DNA of 64,000 nucleotides from Deltaproteobacteria bacterium (GCA_040218735.1 JAVJQW010000019.1:128001-192000), one strand, 5' to 3'; positions 15,730 through 29,203 are shown, counted from the first letter of the stretch. The notes: a model not told the origin generated them from the sequence alone. Translations and numbers: made by a program.

Positions 15730-15951
15730 CGCTCCGAGCTGCTCGACGCGTTCGGGTTCAGGTGCTGCGTAGACTTCGGCGAGTGACGCTCCGAGCTGCA
15801 AGATGCGTTCGGGTTCAGGTGCTGCGTCGACTTCGGCGAGTGACGCTACGAGCTGCTCGACGCGTTCGGGTTCAGGTGCTGCGTCGACTTCGGCGAGTGA
15901 CGCTCTTCGGGTTCCGGTGCCGTCTAGTCTTCGACGCGTGACGCTCCGAGC
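15688..15951 (+). repeat. 57-bp tandem repeat (4 near-complete copies plus 1 degenerate) of the gene's last codons, stop and short 3' flank
   Basis: Unit gacgcgttcgggttcaggtgctgcgtcgacttcggcgagtgacgctccgagctgctc starts at 15688, 15745, 15802 and 15859; degenerate copy at 15906-15951. Confidence 0.95.
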
Positions 15952-16099
15952 GCTGCGCCGTCAGGCGACGGCACGACGCTTCGAGCAGAGTGACGCGGAC
16001 TTCGAAGCGGAGGTCCGGCGCATCAACGCGCTGGAGGTTACGCGGCGTCGCGTGCGTTGGCGCCCTGGCCCCGCGCCTAGTCACCTGCGTCCGCGATGC

Positions 16100-16213
16100 C
16101 TCACGCATCTCGCGGCCGCCTTTCGCGCCTGCTGCCCGCGCAGCATTCGGCTCTCGTCGGTTGCGTACGCCCGGTATGCGCCCTCCTCACGTCCTCGGAG
16201 ATCGATGCGGAGT
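16100..16213. repeat. Possible REP-like palindromic intergenic element
   Basis: Inner hairpin gcgtac-gcccg-gtatgc inside ctcgtcggtt...ccctcctc, with imperfect outer inverted ends (cgcatctc / gagatcgatgcg). Single copy in the window. Confidence 0.3.
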
Positions 16214-17132
16214 AGCGCATTCGCGGCGCAGGCCGAGTACTTCGCTGAGGCCTTCGTGGGCGGCGACTACTACGCGACGTTCTTCGATCCGTTGGCCGAA
16301 GTGATCGCGCGCGGCCTCGGTGCGTCCAAGCGCGGCGCGGCGTTTCTGCGGGAGCACGTCCTCGCGATCGACTTGGTCCCGTACTTCTCGCAGGACTTCG
16401 CCGAGCCGAGGCGGTGTAACGATTGGGACGCGCACGCTCAGGGCGTCGCCGACGATCTGTTGTCGACGCTCCTCGAGGCGCACCCGCCGTCGGCGATCTT
16501 CGCAAACGGCAAGGCGACGAAGGCAGCGCTCGAAGCGCGGGGCGCGCGTTTCGAGCACACCGTCGAGGTGACGAACCGAAGCGGCGCCGGCACGGCGAAG
16601 CTGAACCTCGGGCGCCTCGGTGACGCGCCGATCGTGCACAGCAACTTCCTGCGCAAGATGTACGGCCCAAACTCCGCCGAGGAGCTGGCGGCGACGGGCG
16701 ACGTGCTCCGGGCGTGGAACGCGGGGCAGGTGCACCGTCCCCAGGTCGTTCGCGGCGCGGGGGGCTCGCGATCGTCGGGTCCCGCCTGTCCGTACGACGG
16801 CCCGGGCGCGCCGAAGGGTTACGTCAGCCGCACGTGCAAGGGCTTCTTGCTGTCGGTCGCGTGGCAGCCCTCGCTGTACACCCCCGTGCGACCGAGCGGA
16901 GCGCGGACGCGTCGGCGCTTCATGGTCGCGGTGGAAGCCAAAAAAGATCAGCCGCGGCGAAGCGCGGCGCTCGTCGTGGACCTGGTGCGGGACGACGCCC
17001 GTCGAGGGGGCGCCGCCGCTCGTCGCCGCGACGCTGGGAGCGAACAGCGATCGCGTCCGCCTCGGCTTCTTCTGGCAGCACGACGCGCCGCCCGTGGCGA
17101 TGATTCACGCGCCGCGAATGCGGCGTGTCTGA
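16205..17132 (+). pseudogene. Truncated/frameshifted uracil-DNA-glycosylase-like fold protein
   Basis: HVLAIDLVPYFS and HPPSAIFANGK resemble UDG-superfamily segments. No N-terminal GxNP motif. The coding-like sequence appears to change frame near 16990 and ends at the stop at 17132. Confidence 0.4.
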
Positions 17133-17176
17133 GGACTGTGCCCAGCGCTCCCGCGAAGCGGGAGGTCGTAACGGGC

Positions 17177-17950
17177 TTAGTTGGTGACCGGGATCGACAT
17201 GGTCCCGTTGCTGAGCGCGACCGAGACGGTGCCGCTCGAGACCTGGCCGTTGAAGGCGCCCATGAGGGTGACGCCCGCGGGCCCGTGGGCCGTGATGCTG
17301 ATCGTGCAGATGGTGCCGGTCATGTACGTCGTGCCGCCCTGGACCAGCGTGATGTGCGTGCCCGGCGTGGCGTCGGCCATGCAGCTGTCGTTGCCCGCGG
17401 CCGGCTCGTTGCCCACGGCGAACATCTCGATGGTGTCGCCGTTGCCGCGCATGCCGCCGATCGTGGTGCCGGCGGTGGGCGTCGCGGTCCAGCGCGCGTA
17501 CGCGCCGGTGCCGAACGTGGTCGTCACGCCGTCGATGTCGACGGTGATGGACCCGCCCATGTTCGGGCCGCCATCGCGCGGGCCGCCGTCACGACCGGGG
17601 GGGCCGCCGTCGCGCGGACCGGCGTCGCGTCCGGGGCCGCCGTCGACCGGCGGGCCACCGTCACGCGGCGGGCCGCCGTCGCGGATCACCACGGGTCCCA
17701 TGCCGTCGTCCTTGAACGTGCAGCGCCCTGCGAAGCAGCGCAGCTGATCTCCGCCGGACGGATTGCAGTCCATGTCCGTCGAGCACGGCGTCGAAGCCCC
17801 TTCGAGCTCGCTGCACGTGCCGAGGTAACAGATCTGGTTGCTGCCGCAGTCCCCCGCCCGGGAGCACTCGTCTCCGCAGCCCGAGAACACGAGCATCGAA
17901 GTCAGGGCGAAGGCAGAGGCCGAAGCGAGGTAAATGGCGTAGCGTGACAT
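17177..17950 (-). CDS. Putative lipoprotein with Cys-rich EB-like repeats and RDGGP linker
   Basis: Lipobox LVFSGC; CSRAGDCGSNQICYLGTC and CSTDMDC...CFAGRC; RBS ggaggg upstream of the ATG. Confidence 0.75.
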   Translation of the reverse strand: MSRYAIYLASASAFALTSMLVFSGCGDECSRAGDCGSNQICYLGTCSELEGASTPCSTDMDCNPSGGDQLRCFAGRCTFKDDGMGPVVIRDGGPPRDGGPPVDGGPGRDAGPRDGGPPGRDGGPRDGGPNMGGSITVDIDGVTTTFGTGAYARWTATPTAGTTIGGMRGNGDTIEMFAVGNEPAAGNDSCMADATPGTHITLVQGGTTYMTGTICTISITAHGPAGVTLMGAFNGQVSSGTVSVALSNGTMSIPVTN

Positions 17951-18023: not shown

Positions 18024-20177
18024 TCAGGCCGCCGAGGGCAGCTCCTCGGGGAGGCTGGCGCGACCGAGCGGCTGAATGGCCGTGGTCGGCGGAAGCTCCT
18101 GAACGGACAGCACGGCCAGCGCGGGGAACTCGACCTCGACCAGGCGCCGCACGTACCGCCGCACGTCCGAAGTCGTCAGGAGCACCGGCCGCCGGCCCAT
18201 CCGAAGCACGGGTCGCAGAGTTCGCGAGATCGACGTCAAAATCGCGCGCCGCATCACCGGATCCAGCGCGAGGTAGCTCCCGCTCGGGATATGGCAGATC
18301 GCGCTCCGGACGATGTCCTCGATCTCACCATCGAGGAGGACCGCATTCAGCTGGCCGTCCTCGACGAACCCGTAGGCAATCTGCTGCGACAGCGCGCTGC
18401 GGACGTACTCGGTGAGCAGGACGCCGTCGCTCTCGTGCGGCCCGAACTCCGCGAGCGCTTCGACGATCCCCTTTAGGTCGCGAATCGACACGTCCTCGTC
18501 CACCAAGCGGCGCAGAATGTCGGTGAGCTGCGTCAGGCTCACGATCTTCGGCACGACCTCCTGCACGAGCGTGGGGCACACCTTCGCGAGTCGGTCGACG
18601 AGCTCACTCGTCTCCTGCAGACCGATGAAGTTGCGCGCGTTTCGCGAGAGCACGACACCGACGGTCATGGAGACGATGCCGTCGACCGGCATCGTGAGCA
18701 CGCCGGCCGCCGCGAGCTTGGCCTCGAGCCGCTCGTCGACGAAACCGCACGGCGCGCCGCTGAGCGGGTGTGGGTAGGGCTCGGCGCTGACTCCGAGGCG
18801 CGCAAGCTTCTCCGGAGACTCGAGCGCGAGGCACTTCCCCAGCGGGAGAACTTCATCGTAGACCGGGACGTCGCGGAGGCGCACCACGAAGCTCCCCGCC
18901 GGTAGACCGGGCACGTGCGTGCGCACGCGAATGCCGGGGAATCGAACGCCCGACTGGGCGTGCAGGAACCTGCGGAGCTCGGGGAACAGCTCACCGATCA
19001 ACAGCGTCTCGGCGTCCTTCTTGCCCACGCCGAACCCGAGCTTGGTCGTCAGCTCCGGCGACAGATCGAGCATCACCGGGACGACCGTCGGCGCCATCTG
19101 GTCCATCTGATTCTTCTGCGCCTTGGCCTGCTCCACGCGCTCCGCGAGGCGGGACTCGAAGGACTCGTCCTTCGCGGCCACGGGCCGGTCGCGGCGTCGA
19201 CGCAGGACGATCGCCGCCGCGCCGAACGCCGTCGCGATGGCCAGGAACGGCACGGCCGGGAGCCCGGGGACGATGGCGAGGACGGCCGAGAAGAACGCGC
19301 CAAGCGCGAGTACCTTCGGGCTCGTGAAGAGCTCGGAGCGCAGGCTGTCGCCCAGGCTGCTCTGCGGCTGCTTGGATGCGACGCGCGTCGTGAGGATGCC
19401 CGCGGACAGCGTGATCAGGAGCGCGGGGATCTGCGAGACCAAGCCGTCGCCCACCGTGAGGAGCGAATAGACTTCGGCCGCTTCCGACACCGGCATCCCG
19501 TTGCGCATCGCGCCGATGACGAGCCCCGCCACCAGATTGAGCGCGGTGATGATCAGGCCGGCGATGGCGTCGCCCTTGATGAACTTCATCGCGCCGTCCA
19601 TCGCTCCGTAGAACTGCGACTCGCGACCCAGCTCGTCGCGCTGCGCCTGCGCCTCCTCGTCGTCGATGGCGCCCGAGCGCAGCGCGGCGTCGATCGACAT
19701 CTGCTTGCCGGGCATCGCGTCGAGCGTGAAGCGGGCACCGACTTCGGCGACGCGCTCGGCGCCCTTTCCGATGACGAGGAACTGCACGAGCGTGATGACG
19801 AGGAAGATCACGATGCCGACGATCAAATCTCCCTGGACGACGAACGCCCCGAAGGCCTGCACGACCTCGCCGGCCGTTCCCCGCGACAGGATCATGCGCG
19901 TGGTCGACACGTTGAGCGAGAGGCGGAACAGGGTCGTCACCAAGAGCAACGACGGGAACGTGGAGATCGACAGCGGCTTGTCCGACAGCAGCACGGCCAC
20001 GAGCACGACGGCGGCGAGCGCGAGGTTGAGCGCGAGCAGGCCGTCGAGCAGCGGCGCGGGGAGGGGAAGGATCATCATCGCCAAGATGCAACCGATGGCG
20101 ACGGCGAACGTGACGTCGGCGTGCTTGGCGGGGGCGTCGAGCGGGATGGCGCGGAGGGACTTTCGGAGGGCTTTCAT
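18024..20177 (-). CDS. sctV: Type III secretion export gate SctV (LcrD/YscV, FHIPEP family)
   Basis: FPSLLLVTTLFRLSLNVSTTR, KGAERVAEVGARFTLDAMPGKQMSID, SQFYGAMDGAMKFIKGDAIAG, LLTVGDGLVSQIPALL, GSYLALDP. The MSID and AMKF variants are injectisome-type rather than FlhA-type (MAID, ASKF). Confidence 0.92.
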   Translation of the reverse strand: MKALRKSLRAIPLDAPAKHADVTFAVAIGCILAMMILPLPAPLLDGLLALNLALAAVVLVAVLLSDKPLSISTFPSLLLVTTLFRLSLNVSTTRMILSRGTAGEVVQAFGAFVVQGDLIVGIVIFLVITLVQFLVIGKGAERVAEVGARFTLDAMPGKQMSIDAALRSGAIDDEEAQAQRDELGRESQFYGAMDGAMKFIKGDAIAGLIITALNLVAGLVIGAMRNGMPVSEAAEVYSLLTVGDGLVSQIPALLITLSAGILTTRVASKQPQSSLGDSLRSELFTSPKVLALGAFFSAVLAIVPGLPAVPFLAIATAFGAAAIVLRRRRDRPVAAKDESFESRLAERVEQAKAQKNQMDQMAPTVVPVMLDLSPELTTKLGFGVGKKDAETLLIGELFPELRRFLHAQSGVRFPGIRVRTHVPGLPAGSFVVRLRDVPVYDEVLPLGKCLALESPEKLARLGVSAEPYPHPLSGAPCGFVDERLEAKLAAAGVLTMPVDGIVSMTVGVVLSRNARNFIGLQETSELVDRLAKVCPTLVQEVVPKIVSLTQLTDILRRLVDEDVSIRDLKGIVEALAEFGPHESDGVLLTEYVRSALSQQIAYGFVEDGQLNAVLLDGEIEDIVRSAICHIPSGSYLALDPVMRRAILTSISRTLRPVLRMGRRPVLLTTSDVRRYVRRLVEVEFPALAVLSVQELPPTTAIQPLGRASLPEELPSAA

Positions 20178-20194
20178 GGCGTGCACGCTGGTTT

Positions 20195-20281
20195 AGCGAG
20201 GTCCGTGCCAACGCGATTGGACGTCGCGATCGGCGATTCGTCCGGAGGACGTCCGGAAACGGCGGATGAAATTCGTTCGGA
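20195..20281 (-). promoter_or_regulatory. sigma54 promoter plus tandem-repeat upstream site for sctV
   Basis: tGGcacggacctcGCt at 20210-20195. 25 bp upstream lies ccggacgtcct-ccggacgaat (20256-20236), with a further ccgaacgaat copy at about 20280-20271. Confidence 0.75.
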
Positions 20282-20288
20282 CGGCGCT

Positions 20289-20939
20289 TCAGCCTTCGAT
20301 CAGATCGAGCAGCGCGTGGGCTTTGCCGGCGAGGGCCGTATTACGAGCGCGATTGGCTTTGGTGAGCGCGCGCTGAAGGTACGTCCGGGCCCGCGCCTTG
20401 TTCTTCCGAACGAGCTCCAGCTCCGCGAGGTTGAGCTCGGGGCGAGGGTCGGCCGGATCGAGGCGCGAAGCGCGGCCGTACGCGTCCACGGCCTGCTCTG
20501 CGTCCCCGCGGTAATCGGCCACGAGGCCCCGGGCGAGCCAGAAGTAGGGCTCCTTGGGGTCGATGGCGGTCAGGCCGTCGAAGATGACCTCGGCGAGGCG
20601 CAGCCCGCCGCTGCGGAGATAGTGGTAGCCGACCTCGGCCAGCCCGAACAGCGCATCCGGGTCGTACTCGCGGGCCTCCGCGATCGTTCGGCACACCACG
20701 GCGCCCGCCTGATCGTCGAAGGGCACTGCGGCCACCTGACGCAGCGTGTCGAACATCGAGGTCGCGTCGTAGTCGTCGAACGCGAGCGCCTTCGGAGGCT
20801 GGCACACGAGGGCACGTTGGGCCGGCGCGGAAGCGACGCGCGGCGCGGCGGGGGCGTTCGGCGTGGAGGCCGAGGCGCGAGGGACACGGACCCGAGGACG
20901 GGTCCCCGGAACGGGACGGCGGCGACGTTCGTGGTTCAT
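20289..20939 (-). CDS. TPR protein, SycD/LcrH-like translocator chaperone or SctY-like
   Basis: LFGLAEVGYHYLRSGGLRLAEVIFDGLTAIDPKEPYFWLARG...YGRASRLDPADPRPELNLAE TPR pattern; directly upstream of sctV. Confidence 0.75.
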   Translation of the reverse strand: MNHERRRRPVPGTRPRVRVPRASASTPNAPAAPRVASAPAQRALVCQPPKALAFDDYDATSMFDTLRQVAAVPFDDQAGAVVCRTIAEAREYDPDALFGLAEVGYHYLRSGGLRLAEVIFDGLTAIDPKEPYFWLARGLVADYRGDAEQAVDAYGRASRLDPADPRPELNLAELELVRKNKARARTYLQRALTKANRARNTALAGKAHALLDLIEG

Positions 20940-20942
20940 GGC

Positions 20943-21395
20943 TCAGTAGGTCCTCTGTGCGATGCGCTGGTCGATGGCGCCCATCGGTTCGCTGCGCTTG
21001 CGGTCGATGGCGTCCTGGAACTCGCACAGGCCCTCGCAGGCGGCCATGAGGCGGGCCTCGGCCTCGAGCGCCTCGGCGCCGACGGCGACGGGCGTCGCGA
21101 GCTTCGCCCGGAACTGGGCGACGCAGTGCTCGAGGCGACCGCGGAGCGCGGCCGCCGAACGCGCACGCCGAGGGGGTGCCGGCAGGCGAAGGTCGTCGGA
21201 GAAAGACCGAGCCTGGAAGAAGCGCCCGCCCACGGTCGGGACCTCGAGGTCGAGGTGCTCGGGGAGCGCGACATCGGCGACGTCGAGCGCCTTCAGCTCG
21301 GCGATGCCGGGAAGCTCCGCACCATGACGTGGTCTTTCGATCTGCGCATCGACCACGCGTGGCATCAGGGCTCCGAGTTGAAGTGCGTGCGTCAT
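20943..21395 (-). CDS. Small T3SS-associated protein, possibly SctX-like
   Basis: 150 aa with a helical C-terminus; position matches the yscX-yscY-yscV order; has its own sigma54 promoter. Homology not demonstrated. Confidence 0.5.
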   Translation of the reverse strand: MTHALQLGALMPRVVDAQIERPRHGAELPGIAELKALDVADVALPEHLDLEVPTVGGRFFQARSFSDDLRLPAPPRRARSAAALRGRLEHCVAQFRAKLATPVAVGAEALEAEARLMAACEGLCEFQDAIDRKRSEPMGAIDQRIAQRTY

Positions 21396-21407: not shown

Positions 21408-21490
21408 AGCGAAGGGCGTGCCAATGGACGCGGGTTCTACGAAATCCAATTCGTCCGGCGAACGTCCGGACGGCGCCCGGATTCGTCCGC
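21408..21490 (-). promoter_or_regulatory. sigma54 promoter plus tandem-repeat upstream site for the sctX-like/TPR operon
   Basis: tGGcacgcccttcGCt at 21423-21408. 25 bp upstream lies ccggacgttcg-ccggacgaat (21469-21449), preceded by gcggacgaat-ccgggcgccgt. Confidence 0.78.
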
Positions 21491-21576: not shown

Positions 21577-22038
21577 TCACGCCTTGAGGTTGTTGATCGC
21601 GGTCATGTAGGCGCGATGCTCGGCGGACATGATCTCGGAGGCCGTCTTGAAGAAGTGATTGGCCCGCGCGTTGGCGACGGTCGCGAGCGCACCGACGGTC
21701 GTCACGTCGAAGCTCGCGTCGATGGACTTCAACCCGGAGTCGATCGCGTCGTCCATCTTCGCGACGTCCTCCTCGGACAACGTGCCGCGACCGAGCGCGT
21801 CGAGGAGCGCACGCGCGTCGTCCATGCCGGCGCGCTGCATGAGGCCCGCGAGGGTCTCGGCCTCCTCGGCCGAAACCGAGCCGTCCGCCATCGCATCTTC
21901 CCAGGCGCTCTTCACCGCTGCGCCCGCTTCCACGTTGGCGCGATGGTCGGCGATCTGGTCCGCGTATCCGTGCACCTCGCCTTCGGCGTGGAGCATGAGG
22001 CCGATCTGGTTTTTGACTGCGTCGTTCATCTCGTTCAT
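21577..22038 (-). CDS. EspA/Bsp22-like T3SS filament/tip-type protein (putative)
   Basis: 153 aa, all helical; C-terminus FFKTASEIMSAEHRAYMTAINNLKA fits the S-x-I-M...H...I-x-N-L amphipathic tail of T3SS filament/tip proteins. Confidence 0.5.
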   Translation of the reverse strand: MNEMNDAVKNQIGLMLHAEGEVHGYADQIADHRANVEAGAAVKSAWEDAMADGSVSAEEAETLAGLMQRAGMDDARALLDALGRGTLSEEDVAKMDDAIDSGLKSIDASFDVTTVGALATVANARANHFFKTASEIMSAEHRAYMTAINNLKA

Positions 22039-22412
22039 CCCTTCAGCGTGTAGCGGCGATGCCGCGCCAACGCACCGCGCCGCAGGCGCCCGACGTCTTG
22101 CATGAGCTGACGCTGCGCACCGGCTCCCACGCTGAAGATCGTCTTCACCGTGTGGAACGCGACGCCCACCGTGGCCCCGATCGGCCCCGTTCCCGCCAAG
22201 GCCGGCGCCGTGCGCGCCTGCACCACCGCGATCGCGTCCGCCACCTCCGACAGCTCGTCGGCGTTCTCCTGCAGCGCCTTCTCGGCGCCCGTGAGCGCCT
22301 CTGCGATCTGGCGACTGCGCTCGATGTGCCCCTGAAGCTCGTCTTGATCGTCGGCGCGATACTCCGCGACCGCGACGTTGAACCGCGCCGTCATCATTCC
22401 CGAAACCGTCAT
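22035..22412 (-). CDS. Small coiled-coil protein with Gly-rich hydrophobic segment (translocator-like)
   Basis: RBS aaggag before ATG 22412; coiled coil followed by ALAGTGPIGATVGVAFHTVKTIFSVGAG; ATGA overlap with the next gene. Confidence 0.55.
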   Translation of the reverse strand: MTVSGMMTARFNVAVAEYRADDQDELQGHIERSRQIAEALTGAEKALQENADELSEVADAIAVVQARTAPALAGTGPIGATVGVAFHTVKTIFSVGAGAQRQLMQDVGRLRRGALARHRRYTLKG

Positions 22413-22422
22413 CTCAATCTCC

Positions 22423-22911
22423 TTACGCGTGCTTCTGCGCAGCGGCGCGCGCGAGCTGCAGGCGAGCTTCCCGCTCGGCCTTGAAGTCCTTCGACAGCTT
22501 CTCGTGCTCACTCTGCGTCGCGGCCTCCAGCTCGGCCGCGAGTCGGTGCTCCTGGGCTTCGAGCGACGCCGCGCGCTGCTCTTTTCCGTAGGTGTATCCG
22601 GCCTTGGCAGATAGCAACGAGCCTGACGCGCCCGCTGCACCCAACCACTTCGAGAGGGTCTCGCTCTCGGCGCCGGCGATGGCGCCGCCGATCTGGGCGA
22701 AGGCGCTGACCGAGGAGCCGACGGCCTGCCACATCGCCATCTTGTTCGCGGCCACCGCCGCGTCCTTCTCCTTCTCGAGCGCCTCCGCCTTGCGCTCGAA
22801 GCTACGGTCGCGCGCTCGCTTCGCGTCGGCGTTGTTGCTGTCGCTGCTCTTCCTCATCACCTCGGCGTTCTGCGCGAGGAGCGAGACGATCGTGCTCACT
22901 GCTGCTGACAT
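22423..22911 (-). CDS. SctB-like (SseD/EspB/YopD-type) minor translocator (putative)
   Basis: Coiled coil, then KMAMWQAVGSSVSAFAQIGGAIAG hydrophobic segment, LGAAGASGSLLSA, and a C-terminal coiled coil. Confidence 0.55.
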   Translation of the reverse strand: MSAAVSTIVSLLAQNAEVMRKSSDSNNADAKRARDRSFERKAEALEKEKDAAVAANKMAMWQAVGSSVSAFAQIGGAIAGAESETLSKWLGAAGASGSLLSAKAGYTYGKEQRAASLEAQEHRLAAELEAATQSEHEKLSKDFKAEREARLQLARAAAQKHA

Positions 22912-22918
22912 CTTTGAC

Positions 22919-23926
22919 TCATCCCCTCAGCGTCCGAGCCTCGAGATCGAGGATCGCCGCGTTCATGTCTTCGCTGCTGGCCGCCGCCTCCGCGACCACC
23001 TGCTGGGCGTCGGCGAGCTGGGCTTCCGAGGCCTCGATCGCGAGGCTCTCGCCTTCGGCCTCGAGCCGCTTCAGATCCGCGTCGCCGTCGAACTTCCCTT
23101 CGACCGCCGACCCGACGAAGTAGCCGCCGCTCTCGACCACCGCCGCGGTCGTGACGCCCATCTGCGCCACCGTCGCGACGGTGCTGATCAGACCGCCGAC
23201 CGGATTCAACGCCGCGAGCGTGAGCCCCGAGTTCATGCCGGTGGCCAACCCGTAGCCGCTGAAGAGGTTCCGAGTCAGACGCCCGAAGACGCTCCCCTTC
23301 TTCGACGCCTCGACGGCTTCGGCCTGGGCATCGTAGCGAGCCTGCGAGCTCGCCTCGACCTCGCCGAGCTTCGCGCGCCCGCCTTCGAGCGCTTGCGTTC
23401 GCTTGGCGTCGGCGACATCCGAGGCCACCGCCTGCTGCCCCTGCACGGCGGAGACGCCCGCCATGTTGCCGTTCCCGCGCCCCTGTCGTCCCGCGTGGTC
23501 CTTCTTCACGTTGTTCGACAGGCTGCTCTCTGCGAGGTTCAGGTCGCGCGAAGCCTTGGCGACATCGGCGCCGACCGCTTGGAGCTCGAAGTCCAAGCGC
23601 GTCGACTCCGCGGCGAGTCGGTCCTCGTCCGCCTGGAGCAACTCGACGCGCTCGTTCAGCGACTCACCCTCGCGACTGTTGATCCCGAAGAACCCACCGA
23701 CCGCGTGCACGACGTTGCCGACCGTCGAGCGATCCTGAATCTCCTCCTGCCGCTGCGCGAGCTCGATCTGCTGTTCCTGAGCGTGCTCGATGGCCTTGGC
23801 GTTGGCCTCGCGTTGCTGCTCGAGGTCCGCGACCTTGCTCTCCGCCGCGTCCGCCGTGGCCTCGAGCTTGTCCTTCGCCGCCTCGAACAACGCGAAGGAA
23901 ACGCGCTGTGCTGCATTGGGTCTCAT
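22919..23926 (-). CDS. SctE-like (SseC/YopB-type) major translocator (putative)
   Basis: RBS aaggag before ATG 23926; long coiled coils; AEAVEASKKGSVFGRL motif then hydrophobic GLTLAALNPVGGLISTVATVAQMGVTTAAVV, as in SctE proteins. Confidence 0.55.
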   Translation of the reverse strand: MRPNAAQRVSFALFEAAKDKLEATADAAESKVADLEQQREANAKAIEHAQEQQIELAQRQEEIQDRSTVGNVVHAVGGFFGINSREGESLNERVELLQADEDRLAAESTRLDFELQAVGADVAKASRDLNLAESSLSNNVKKDHAGRQGRGNGNMAGVSAVQGQQAVASDVADAKRTQALEGGRAKLGEVEASSQARYDAQAEAVEASKKGSVFGRLTRNLFSGYGLATGMNSGLTLAALNPVGGLISTVATVAQMGVTTAAVVESGGYFVGSAVEGKFDGDADLKRLEAEGESLAIEASEAQLADAQQVVAEAAASSEDMNAAILDLEARTLRG

Positions 23927-23951
23927 GATGTTCTCCTTCTCGAGCCGGCGG

Positions 23952-24560
23952 CTACGCCATGCGGGTGCTCTGGTGCTTCTGCTTGATCGAGTCCGCGAGC
24001 TCCGACTGGTTCTTGCGAACCGCGCTGACCATGCTGACCTCGATGTTGATCTCGACGTTGCGGCTCGCACCGTCCGCCTCGGCGGACTTGAGGGCGTTGT
24101 CGATGTCCCGCTTCCAGCTATCGAGCGCGGCGTTCGCCTCGGGCGTCGCGAAGTTGAAGTTGCCGCTGGCGTCCACGTTCTCCGCCTTCCAGCTCAGCTT
24201 GACGCCGATCTCCTCGAGCGGCTTCGCGATCTCCGCGTTCCACTGCGCGGGTTTGATCGCGCCCGCCGACTGGAGCTCGCTGAGGCGGGACTTCACCTTG
24301 AGGATCCGCTTGTTGAGCGCGTTCTGTTCGGCGATCTCATCGGCACGGGCGTGAAGGAACTGCTCCTTCACCTCACCGAGCTTGCCCATCTCCGCGAGGA
24401 TTCGCTTCGCGGCGTCGCCGCGCCCGGCCGAGGACCGACGGACGGTGCTGTCGCCGAACGCATCCGGCACGGCGCCCGAGGCCCGGGACTCCGACGTCGG
24501 CGTCATCTGGTAGCGGTTGGTGACGTTGGTGGTGGGGTTGGGGTTGAAGTTCGCAGCCAT
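23952..24560 (-). CDS. EspA/Bsp22/SctA-like tip or filament protein (putative)
   Basis: N/T/S/P-rich disordered N-terminus (MAANFNPNPTTNVTN), coiled coil ARADEIAEQNALNKRI, and C-terminal helix IDNALKSAE...QSELADSIKQKHQS. First gene of the operon. Confidence 0.5.
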   Translation of the reverse strand: MAANFNPNPTTNVTNRYQMTPTSESRASGAVPDAFGDSTVRRSSAGRGDAAKRILAEMGKLGEVKEQFLHARADEIAEQNALNKRILKVKSRLSELQSAGAIKPAQWNAEIAKPLEEIGVKLSWKAENVDASGNFNFATPEANAALDSWKRDIDNALKSAEADGASRNVEINIEVSMVSAVRKNQSELADSIKQKHQSTRMA

Positions 24561-24613: not shown

Positions 24614-24714
24614 TTCAAGGCACGTGCCATCGATGGATCGTCGCGACGCCGCCGATCCGACGGCGTTCGTCCGAGATTCGTTCGGATTCGTTCGTGCGGC
24701 CGGACGGCGTCCGG
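24614..24714 (-). promoter_or_regulatory. sigma54-like promoter plus tandem-repeat upstream site for the translocon-like operon
   Basis: tGGcacgtgccttGAa at 24629-24614 (GA instead of GC at -12). 35 bp upstream lies acgaacgaat-ccgaacgaatc-tcggacgaac (24695-24665). Confidence 0.65.
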
Positions 24715-27996: not shown

Positions 27997-28009
27997 ATGC
28001 AACCTGCGC

Positions 28010-29203
28010 ATGAAGAACAACATCACGATCCTCACCCTCCTCCTCACCGCGTGCGCCGCCGAAGTCACACCGACCGCGGACACGTCGGATGAGATTCGCC
28101 TCCCATCGTTCCGCCCCGCGCGCGGACCTCGGCTGCGTTTCCCGATCGCCCGCCGCGACCGCGGCAACATCATCGCCGAAGTCATCTTCGGCATGGACCA
28201 CAAGGACCGCGGCACGCACCGCACCGACTGCTACAACTACGCCGGCCTCCCGTTCCCGCAGTGTTACAACGGCCACGACGGTCACGACTACGCGCTGAAG
28301 GGCGGCTTCCCGATGATGGACCTCAACGCCCCGACGATCGTCGCCGCGGCACCGGGTCGCGTCGTGTCGGTTGTCGATGGCAACTACGATCGCTGCCACG
28401 TCGACAAGAACTTCGAAGTCACCTGCGACGGCTTCGTGAAGGAAGCCAACAAGGTCGTCATCGAACACGCCGGCGGCTGGCGCACGAACTATCTCCACCT
28501 CAAGAAGAACAGCATCGTCGTCGCCGAAGGTGACGTCGTGACCTGCGGACAGAAGCTCGGGGAGATGGGTTCGAGCGGCAACTCATCGATGCCTCACCTC
28601 CACTTCTCCCTCGACGATCCCAACAAACGCAGCGTCGATCCCTACGCCGGCATCATGAGCCAGCCCGAGACCTTCTGGGTTCAGCAGGTCACGCCCGACG
28701 GCCTGCCCGGCGACCTCTACGACGGCCAGTCCATCATCGACCCGCTCCTCGACCCCGAGTGTTACGACGTTGTCGAAGACGCGACCGAGTGCGGCACGAC
28801 GCTCGTCACCAACGCCGAAGCCTGCGGCACGCAGCTCGTGACCTCCACCGCGCAGTGCGGAACCGTGCACGTGACGTCGGCCCAGCAGTGCGGCACCGAG
28901 CTCGTGACCTCCGCGCAGATCTGCGGCACCGAGGTCGTCGAGGACGCCACGGTCTGCGGCACCGAGATGGTCCGCGACGCCGCCCGCTGCGGGACCGAGC
29001 TCGTGAACGACCTGCTCACGTGCATCCAGGCGGGCCTCGCCGGTCAGCTCCCGTGTGAAATGGCCGCGGAGTGCGAGGTCGCGCTGTCCTGCGAGATCGA
29101 CGCGACGTGTGAGATCCCGTCGTCCTGCGACGTGCCCGCCTCGTGTGAGATCCCCGCGACGTGCGCGATCCCCAACAGCTGCGAAGTGTTCGCCTGCGAG
29201 TGA
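28010..29203 (+). CDS. M23-family peptidase lipoprotein with Cys-rich repetitive C-terminal tail
   Basis: Lipobox LLLTAC; zinc motifs HDGHD, YLHL and GSSGNSSMPHLHF; tail of CGT-x8 and CEIPxx repeats. Confidence 0.88.
   Translation: MKNNITILTLLLTACAAEVTPTADTSDEIRLPSFRPARGPRLRFPIARRDRGNIIAEVIFGMDHKDRGTHRTDCYNYAGLPFPQCYNGHDGHDYALKGGFPMMDLNAPTIVAAAPGRVVSVVDGNYDRCHVDKNFEVTCDGFVKEANKVVIEHAGGWRTNYLHLKKNSIVVAEGDVVTCGQKLGEMGSSGNSSMPHLHFSLDDPNKRSVDPYAGIMSQPETFWVQQVTPDGLPGDLYDGQSIIDPLLDPECYDVVEDATECGTTLVTNAEACGTQLVTSTAQCGTVHVTSAQQCGTELVTSAQICGTEVVEDATVCGTEMVRDAARCGTELVNDLLTCIQAGLAGQLPCEMAAECEVALSCEIDATCEIPSSCDVPASCEIPATCAIPNSCEVFACE

Follow-up and report, generated by a model that had tools for sequence, protein, structure and literature searches.

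Described type III translocon operons and the present locus

Among the described systems closest to the locus treated here is the LEE4 operon of enteropathogenic and enterohemorrhagic Escherichia coli (EPEC and EHEC), which includes sepL, espA, espD, espB, cesD2, and escF, according to the part of the source available to us (PMC3903284). The present locus, a set of five small genes with neighboring genes for a tetratricopeptide repeat (TPR) protein and a paralog of the export-gate protein SctV of type III secretion systems (T3SSs), lies in a 64,000-nucleotide (nt) stretch of the genome of a Deltaproteobacteria bacterium (GCA_040218735.1, JAVJQW010000019.1:128001-192000), hereafter the window. 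In Salmonella pathogenicity island 2 (SPI-2), the gene order is sseB-sscA-sseC-sseD. In regions of the Ysc type it is yscX-yscY-yscV(lcrD)-lcrR-lcrGVH-yopBD, with pcrD-pcrRGVH-popBD as the Pcr counterpart. SctV serves as the docking platform for chaperone-substrate complexes. The T3SS* of Myxococcus xanthus is described, in the accessible part of the report, as being without secretin, needle, and translocon, and is thought to act on prey (PMC12075869). Multiple copies of sctV in Myxococcia and Polyangia are mentioned, on the basis of KEGG counts, in one sentence of the available part of another source (PMC11509652).

The five genes, g1 to g5, occupy positions 21577-24560, and an extra gene, g6, separates g5 from the TPR gene. 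The contig that holds the window is called C41; C70, C38, C9, C23, C59, and C16 are other contigs of the same genome. The genes, with lengths in amino acids (aa) and proposed identities, are as follows.

g1, 23952..24560, minus strand: 202 aa; divergent needle/filament-like family member, candidate filament or tip subunit
g2, 22919..23926, minus strand: 335 aa, start at the ATG after AAGGAG; candidate major translocator (SctE-like), by architecture only
g3, 22423..22911, minus strand: 162 aa with a coiled coil and an uncharged segment; candidate for a minor translocator of the SctB (SseD/EspB) type
g4, 22035..22412, minus strand: 125 aa, N-terminal helix, uncharged segment, and basic tail; candidate third membrane-active protein or small chaperone
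g5, 21577..22038, minus strand: 153 aa; "B-type" needle-like family member into which a helical domain is inserted, candidate subunit of a needle, rod, or filament
g6, 20943..21395, minus strand: 150 aa; small conserved cassette protein, SctX-like by position only
TPR gene, 20289..20939, minus strand: 216 aa with a Pro/Arg-rich N-terminal extension; candidate class II (PcrH/SycD/AcrH-like) chaperone
sctV paralog, 18024..20186, minus strand: 720 aa; export-gate protein of an accessory "cassette" clade

The make-up of the locus is close to that of LEE4, and the most economical reading appears to be a type III "outer parts" operon residing in an accessory cassette that brings a gate protein of its own. 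As in LEE4 and SPI-2, one operon would encode a needle subunit, a filament protein whose C-terminal helix is of the needle type, two hydrophobic translocators of which one is larger than the other, and an additional small protein; g3 resembles SctB of the SseD/EspB type, and family relatives of g1 and g5 match SseB, EspA, and SctF models. Unlike the members of those families, the proteins here fall below the family cut-offs. Also unlike LEE4, g5 has 153 aa instead of about 75 and carries an inserted helical domain, g4 has a hydrophobic segment, a gatekeeper gene is absent, and both the operon and the extra sctV that it accompanies are remote from the core genes. The initial annotation had regarded the five genes as an expanded set, larger than the canonical one. 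This is questionable because the content, with a second needle-family protein and a small fourth protein, resembles that of LEE4 (espA, espD/B, cesD2, and escF, in the part of PMC3903284 available to us).

The likeness to the Ysc/Pcr region lies in an sctV beside a candidate translocon operon and the gene for a candidate TPR chaperone of class II, the family of which can be aligned with PcrH, SycD, and AcrH from end to end. As in the Ysc region, genes for a small protein and a TPR protein lie directly upstream of sctV. Unlike in that region, sctV is here an additional paralog of a separate clade, g6 has no similarity to YscX, and LcrV- and LcrG-like proteins were not detected. With the "needleless" T3SS* of M. 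xanthus the present case shares a non-flagellar T3SS in a Myxococcota predator. It differs in that genes of the needle family and translocator-like genes are found in this lineage, and its core SctV groups with those of classical injectisomes and not with two Myxococcaceae/Myxococcales entries. The mention of multi-copy sctV in PMC11509652 comes, in the part available, without cassettes, partner genes, or phylogeny, and apart from that sentence the literature searched (subscription journals being outside its scope) holds no description of orphan or multi-copy SctV cassettes. Since T3SSs of Myxococcota are currently discussed as "needleless" and translocon-free, a lineage with plausible needle-family and pore genes is a test case, one that concerns the use of injectisomes by predatory or environmental bacteria.

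The proposed accessory cassette

Taken as a whole, we hold it to be fairly probable that the locus is a type III outer-parts operon in an accessory SctV cassette that uses a shared core. In this explanation, g1-g5 would be transcribed as a single unit, and their products would be secreted as type III substrates. The products of g1 and g5 would be needle-family subunits that polymerize outside the cell as needle, filament, or tip, and g3, probably with g2 and g4, would supply membrane-inserting helical proteins that form a pore in the target membrane. Together with g6, the class II-like TPR protein, which would bind substrates as a chaperone, and their own SctV paralog, they would make up a self-contained accessory cassette, whose three units seem to be under the control of σ54-type promoters. 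Because a single non-flagellar core (SctN, R, T, and U) is present in the genome, the cassette SctV most likely assembles into that core, where it would provide a ring reserved for the docking of chaperone-substrate complexes from the same cassette.

The genes themselves are well defined. The GC content of the window is about 69%, and because of this high value open reading frames (ORFs) are abundant (76 of at least 80 aa in 18 kb, many of them spurious). In g1-g5 the GC content of third codon positions (GC3) is 0.82-0.96 in the expected phase and on the minus strand, with a phase shift at every gene boundary, and all eight ORFs, from g1 to sctV, are intact with coding-type GC3. The gaps between successive genes from g1 to g5 are 25, 7, 10, and -4 nt, the g4 stop being overlapped by the g5 start as ATGA. 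ORF limits, GC3 phase, and gaps bear out the earlier description of the five minus-strand genes as tightly packed. The strong ribosome-binding sites also claimed for them are seen in two of the five, g2 (GAAGGAGAAC) and g4 (TAAGGAGATT), which have sites of the AAGGAG type; those of g1, g3, and g5 are weaker. Cysteine is absent from all five proteins. The adjoining SycD-like TPR gene and sctV are also where they were described, with matches to TIGR02552 (below the cut-off) and TIGR01399 (above it), and with g6, previously unlisted, intervening. The spacing is 181 nt between g5 and g6, 3 nt from the g6 stop to the TPR start, and 102 nt between the TPR gene and sctV.

SctV paralogs and the single non-flagellar core

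The SctV encoded in the window (18024-20186) scores 724.5 bits against TIGR01399, above the cut-off of 692.25. Of the 52 columns that do not vary among 27 reference FlhA/SctV sequences, it keeps all 52, and the range for the cassette SctVs is 49-52. The genome has seven matches to FHIPEP, six full-length and one a C-terminal fragment (on C16), along with two SctU, two SctR, and two T3SS-type ATPases, one of each of these last three belonging to a cluster of flagellar genes on C59. Genes of the non-flagellar core stand at separate places on C23, as sctN-sctO, sctR/T, and sctU-TPR-TPR-sctV. Four extra SctVs are encoded on C41, C70, C38, and C9, each beside a TPR gene. The cassettes on C41, C70, and C38 contain, besides a g6-like gene, between one and three genes of the needle family and genes for small coiled-coil and hydrophobic proteins; in the C9 cassette, the TPR protein is much more divergent and the gene set less clear. 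A like cassette layout is found in loci read from six relatives. Matches to FHIPEP outnumber those to SctU in 14 of 20 genomes of the order, these being matches, not copy numbers, with some of the 20 assemblies fragmented. One core and four extra well-conserved SctVs, most with their own chaperone and substrates, raise the question of whether gate-ring swapping sets the substrate repertoire.

The relationships were followed in a quick maximum-likelihood tree of 47 SctV/FlhA sequences, which includes the six full-length copies of this genome, copies of seven relatives, and 14 of a set of 68 loci, the remaining copies of the order being outside it. In this tree 17 cassette SctVs form one clade (SH-aLRT support 100) apart from the core clade. 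Cassette subclades extend over several genera, and the C9 copy stands on a long branch of its own. The eight core SctVs evolve very slowly and group with classical injectisome SctVs (support 87). By this tree, the cassette SctVs are an old clade of their own, present across genera.

A tentative extension of the shared-core explanation, to which we attach distinctly less confidence, is that one injectisome core is served by several interchangeable "head" cassettes (SctV ring, TPR protein, g6 adaptor, needle, and pore proteins), the choice among them being under σ54 control. If this were true, alternative needles, tips, and translocons would be built for different target cells, and the fast-evolving, allele-swapping g1-g5 would be the determinants of specificity. 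Substrate selection at the export gate would then be modular, by the swapping of paralogs, for which there is no injectisome precedent in the literature searched.

Other export-related genes were noted in the same genome. On C16, a 381-aa ORF (73260-74189) matches FHIPEP in the cytoplasmic C-terminal part alone (profile positions 329-655) and has a same-genus counterpart at C545:16412-17338; it may be a stand-alone SctV ring domain. A full-looking flagellar cluster (fliE/F/G, flhB/A/F/G, fliA, and flgG/K/L) lies at C59:378000-410360 in this Myxococcota-like genome. Bac_export_2 (FlhB/SctU) matches occur in 20 of 20 genomes of the order, mostly two in each, and a flagellar-type FlhA is present in each of the eight genomes placed in the tree. 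Adjoining the core sctN-sctO, C23:290941-295800 encodes a 1620-aa protein with a C-terminal deaminase toxin domain of the BURPS668_1122 type (PF14424, E 3e-13), a candidate effector. Enzyme-like genes also stand at cassette ends: a calpain-type peptidase in C70 (PF00648, E 1.8e-17, L001:13269-14201), a PG_binding_1 protein in C38 (E 2.8e-15, L002:12596-13807), and a GNAT acetyltransferase in C9 (E 3.6e-9, L007:11828-12724). These are possible cassette-specific effectors.

Needle-like proteins g1 and g5

A blastp search identifies a paralog of g5 on C70 (E 7.4e-6), and paralog links lead to proteins of 170-200 aa on C70, C38, and C9. The alignment of this family, A2, has 21 sequences from eight genomes, namely this genome and seven others of its order, and has a conserved motif at the extreme C-terminus. 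When each sequence is left out in turn, g5 scores 39.2 bits against the A2 profile (best shuffle 14.5) and g1 scores 17.8 bits (best of 500 shuffles 9.4). As a single sequence, g1 has no match in Pfam, NCBIfam, or PHROG and none in 19 other genomes of the order; its N-terminal 50 or so residues are rich in Ser, Thr, Asn, and Pro.

Among the annotated relatives of the family, type III axial proteins predominate. The best match of the A2 profile in the PDB is a 43-residue chain of 7y6c (E 0.004), labeled a needle co-chaperone, which we suspect to be a needle fragment despite the label. It is followed by PrgI-SipD (E 0.02), a needle fusion (0.15), and PrgI (0.22). All four align to the end of the chain, and they are interleaved with unrelated coiled-coil proteins. 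Against 1.84 billion representatives, the profile has 1578 matches at E≤1e-3 and 178 at E≤1e-10, which delimits a large family, hitherto unannotated, of extended proteins of needle-like type (1578 representative clusters at the former threshold). Among the best 150 of the 1578, PF09392 (T3SS_needle_F) is found in 28 (best E 6.6e-6), the next Pfam family being TerB with six, and SseB in four (best E 9.6e-6), TIGR02105 SctF in four, SctI in one, and EspA in one (E 0.003). Within the genome, the top needle-like match is that of the paralog C70_169 to PF09392 (E 1.3e-3, 19.3 bits, cut-off 29.4).

Both g5 (153 aa) and g1 (202 aa) exceed SctF, a helical hairpin of about 70-90 aa, and needle-sized members (83-100 aa) exist elsewhere in the family. 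An AlphaFold2 (AF2) model of g5 built on A2, with a predicted local distance difference test (pLDDT) score of 84.9, has long helices at 2-52 and 112-152 around a small helical bundle. Because of the position of the A2 motif, the leave-one-out scores, the relatives in the PDB and the database, and the g5 model, we take g1 and g5 to be probable extended representatives of the axial needle/EspA/SseB superfamily and not SctF proper. The placement of g5 in this lineage-wide family, with its needle/EspA/SseB-like C-terminal helix, appears firm, and that of g1 is weakly indicated. The C-terminal helices had previously been called EspA/Bsp22-like; what stands of this is membership in a family with a helix of the needle/EspA/SseB type, curated family cut-offs not being reached.

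These relatives bear on the reading that the five proteins have nothing to do with type III secretion and are coiled-coil or membrane proteins of some other envelope function that happen to lie beside sctV. Helical proteins do give weak chance matches, of which that of g5 to TerB (E 3.1e-4) is an example, and this reading also draws on the unmatched curated family thresholds and on fold searches that are non-specific. Against it, A2 family members stand beside sctV paralogs in this genome and in six relatives, T3SS axial families dominate the annotated database relatives of A2, and phage families give no match. We regard it as very unlikely. A phage origin was also considered and rejected, with PHROG matches in none of six proteins.

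Hydrophobic proteins g2, g3, and g4

The three remaining proteins have uncharged hydrophobic stretches, at 220-264 (and 67-84) in g2, 58-81 in g3, and 68-89 in g4. In g3, the segment is flanked by charged helices, which agrees with the architecture of SctB-type proteins, where a coiled coil at the N-terminus and a helix at the C-terminus enclose one hydrophobic segment. Three signals, each weak, agree for this protein: a match to NF052420 (SseD; E 9.7e-4, 19.3 bits, where the cut-off is 130), one to PF05802 (SctB2; E 0.46), and the ESM Atlas clusters closest in features. The top three of these score 0.93, 0.93, and 0.92, sharing 199, 200, and 193 of 256 features, and PF05802 accounts for 56%, 21%, and 60% of their members; IpaC/YopD clusters come next at 0.85-0.87. 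A search of 5.8 billion clusters gave only the self-match of g3. Together, the concordant signals point to g3 as a candidate minor translocator, SctB of the SseD/EspB type. The SctB-like label given to it earlier is in this respect supported by NCBIfam, Pfam, and ESM features alike, and stops short of the curated cut-off.

The uncharged stretch of g2 has 45 residues with a central NP, and that of g4 has 22. In a single-sequence AF2 model of g2 (mean pLDDT 64.2), helices at 5-74 and 86-148 reach about 90 and give a confident helical hairpin of about 140 residues (5-148), the hydrophobic part being below 50. In a Foldseek search with this model, IpaB (3u0c) ranks 36th (E 0.68). No family matches g2 at E≤1, including the SctE types (SseC PF04888 and YopB/IpaB), and the ESM Atlas has no usable match. 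By sequence, g2 and g4 are orphans, translocator-like in architecture and company only. The assignments of g2 as SctE and of g4 as an extra translocator in the initial annotation are accordingly left with architecture, family matches and homologues being absent.

The five proteins could also be T3SS substrates without a structural role, g2-g4 being pore-forming toxins or effectors for prey or competitors and g1 and g5 secreted carriers or adaptors. A hydrophobic hairpin with coiled coil is also a description of alpha-pore-forming toxins, the genes are extremely lineage-specific, other cassettes have effector-like enzymes as neighbors (calpain-like in C70, PG-binding in C38, and GNAT in C9), and the related M. 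xanthus system, is described as without needle and translocon and as active in prey lysis (PMC12075869). However, the C-terminal needle-family motif at the end of g5, g1, and their relatives is typical of polymerizing axial proteins, the signals of g3 are for SctB specifically, and the same mix of protein classes recurs across other cassettes. We consider this alternative improbable, and prefer to see the five as candidate outer parts of an injectisome.

The TPR protein and g6

The TPR protein matches TIGR02552 (LcrH_SycD) with E 3.5e-19 and 68.9 bits, below the cut-off of 104.8. A profile of its family, made from ten cassette and core copies, finds PcrH (3.7e-15), SycD (3.8e-12), and AcrH (2.7e-11) in the PDB and is colinear with these chaperones over their entire length. 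Generic TPR designs rank higher in this search because of repeated matches. The small protein g6 is present in every cassette examined, and eight cassette copies make up its alignment, A5. The g6 profile finds nothing in the PDB, including YscX, so that the idea of g6 as an SctX stays positional.

The order g6-TPR-sctV mirrors yscX-yscY-yscV. This suggests another arrangement, in which the TPR protein would not be the chaperone of the five but would form with g6 an SctX:SctY-like pair that docks on the cassette SctV, the five using other chaperones or none. The stop of g6 is only 3 nt from the TPR start, the pair is kept across cassettes while the helical proteins change past recognition, and a weak match to NF052415 (SctY, E 4.3e-4) is found. 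YscX:YscY is reported to bind YscV (PMC9163089). The TPR family is nevertheless far closer to PcrH, SycD, and AcrH (1e-11 to 1e-15 over the full length, and 3.5e-19 for TIGR02552), and the g6 profile recovers neither YscX nor any other PDB entry. The two roles are also compatible with each other. We therefore look on the SctX:SctY-like arrangement as a possibility, on the unlikely side, and retain that of a class II-like chaperone as the preferred candidate role of the TPR protein.

Promoter-like sites

Candidate control elements lie upstream of each of the three units and in the gap between g5 and g6.

24615..24629, minus strand: σ54-type promoter-like site TGGCACG-N4-TTGA, about 55 nt upstream of g1
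21409..21423, minus strand: σ54-type promoter-like site upstream of g6, a pattern match
20196..20210, minus strand: σ54-type promoter-like site upstream of sctV, a pattern match
21452..21472, minus strand: GC-rich palindrome/hairpin in the 181-nt gap between g5 and g6, a terminator-like match overlapping CGGACGAAT-type repeats

Three matches to the pattern TGGCACG-N4-TYGM occur in the 64-kb window, one shortly upstream of each of the genes g1, g6, and sctV, with 0.40 expected per window and none of 100 shuffles reaching three; the 11.6-Mb genome has 27. In the C70 and C38 cassettes, similar GG-N10-GC sites occur where promoter regions are divergent, with a further site at C70:149581, and a gene for a σ54 activator stands beside sctN on C23. 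The palindrome at 21452..21472 is a weak candidate for the terminator of the g1-g5 unit or for an activator-binding site; the terminator scan as such was not above chance (three found, 3.3 expected).

Repeats resembling CGGACGAAT and palindromic repeats resembling CGTCCGGACG were seen 40-80 nt further upstream of the σ54-like sites. Their patterns were derived after looking at the sequence, and they are not enriched in the window (20 of the CGGACGAAT type where 29 are expected; four of CCGTCCGRMC where 3.9 are expected). It is their placement alone that is suggestive.

Divergence of the candidate outer proteins and points against the assignment

Identity to a genome of the same genus is 87% for SctV (134/154), 65.6% for the TPR protein, 60.7% for g6, and 28% for g5. 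Over 4415 bases the locus is 99.8% identical in contigs of another metagenome study, in which the part of g1 that encodes residues 1-148 is replaced or strongly diverged. The g1 variant (24118-24558) has two replaced blocks (179 to 182 nt and 141 to 126 nt), with 18 differences in the 119 nt between them. The variant allele is shared in part by a second study, and the allele of the window is found in two others. Among the differences listed, sctV has three synonymous and one non-synonymous, and the part of g1 for residues 62-78 has six synonymous and three non-synonymous. The gradient of rates and the replacement of g1 alleles are as would be expected of exposed parts.

Several results weigh against the assignment of the locus to an outer-parts operon. 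Among the differences listed, g2 and g3 together have one synonymous and five non-synonymous, a bias that could reflect relaxed constraint. None of g1-g5 reaches a curated T3SS-family cut-off in Pfam or NCBIfam, whether of translocator or of needle families, the distance of g3 from the SseD cut-off being a case in point. Neither g1 nor g5 matches PF09392 even at E≤1, nor EspA or SseB (PF03433 and NF052422) in the Pfam and NCBIfam scans. Without the other B-type members, g5 scores 8.1 bits, inside the shuffle range, and it reaches the needle-like A- and C-type members solely through the B-type ones; the C-terminus of g1 ends about eight residues short of the end of the family motif. Among 5.8 billion clusters g2 finds only itself, with 0 of 40 relatives matched, and g4 has no family match in Pfam, NCBIfam, or PHROG and no homologue in 19 other genomes of the order. 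When g1-g5 and the proteins of other cassettes were compared by hhalign with four C70-type families, g2, g3, and g4 had no profile similarity to the hydrophobic proteins of other cassettes. Fold searches (Foldseek and VIA-align on g5, Foldseek on g2) gave generic helical bundles and coiled coils, with IpaD and IpaB at E of about 1 only; being non-specific, they are unusable for or against a type III role. The structural check proposed with the initial annotation, run in this way on the g5 and g2 models, singled out neither a T3SS family nor a rival one.

The surroundings add to these points. Beyond sctV and the TPR gene, family scans find no T3SS or basal-body gene within the window. In the whole genome there is no T3SS-type secretin above the cut-off (TIGR02516), and none near the core, so that an outer-membrane exit for the needle lacks a candidate; nor is there an SctJ above the cut-off (PF01514 and TIGR02544).

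The lack of basal-body genes nearby, the very fast evolution of the five proteins, and the non-synonymous bias of the listed changes in g2 and g3 would also be in keeping with a decaying remnant of a former second T3SS, whose five ORFs and sctV have gone out of use in secretion. The eight ORFs are nevertheless intact with coding-type GC3, the SctV keeps all 52 invariant columns and scores above its equivalog cut-off, cassette SctV subclades are found in several genera, promoter-like sites are kept at all three units, and the 4.4 kb with 99.8% identity recur in a contig of another study. Decay is in our view the least likely of the alternatives, and a functional accessory cassette remains the preferred explanation.

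Surrounding genes

The remainder of the window holds housekeeping genes such as gyrB, moaA, and kinases, with an alcohol dehydrogenase gene directly upstream of g1. Downstream of sctV, on the plus strand, a 714-aa ORF (15803-17947) has no family match, and the phase of its high GC3 changes at about 16900, which suggests two or three genes or a frameshift. Further away, also on the plus strand, an M23 peptidase (27998-29200) continues into a Cys-rich tail in which units of the CGT(E/Q)LV type are repeated.

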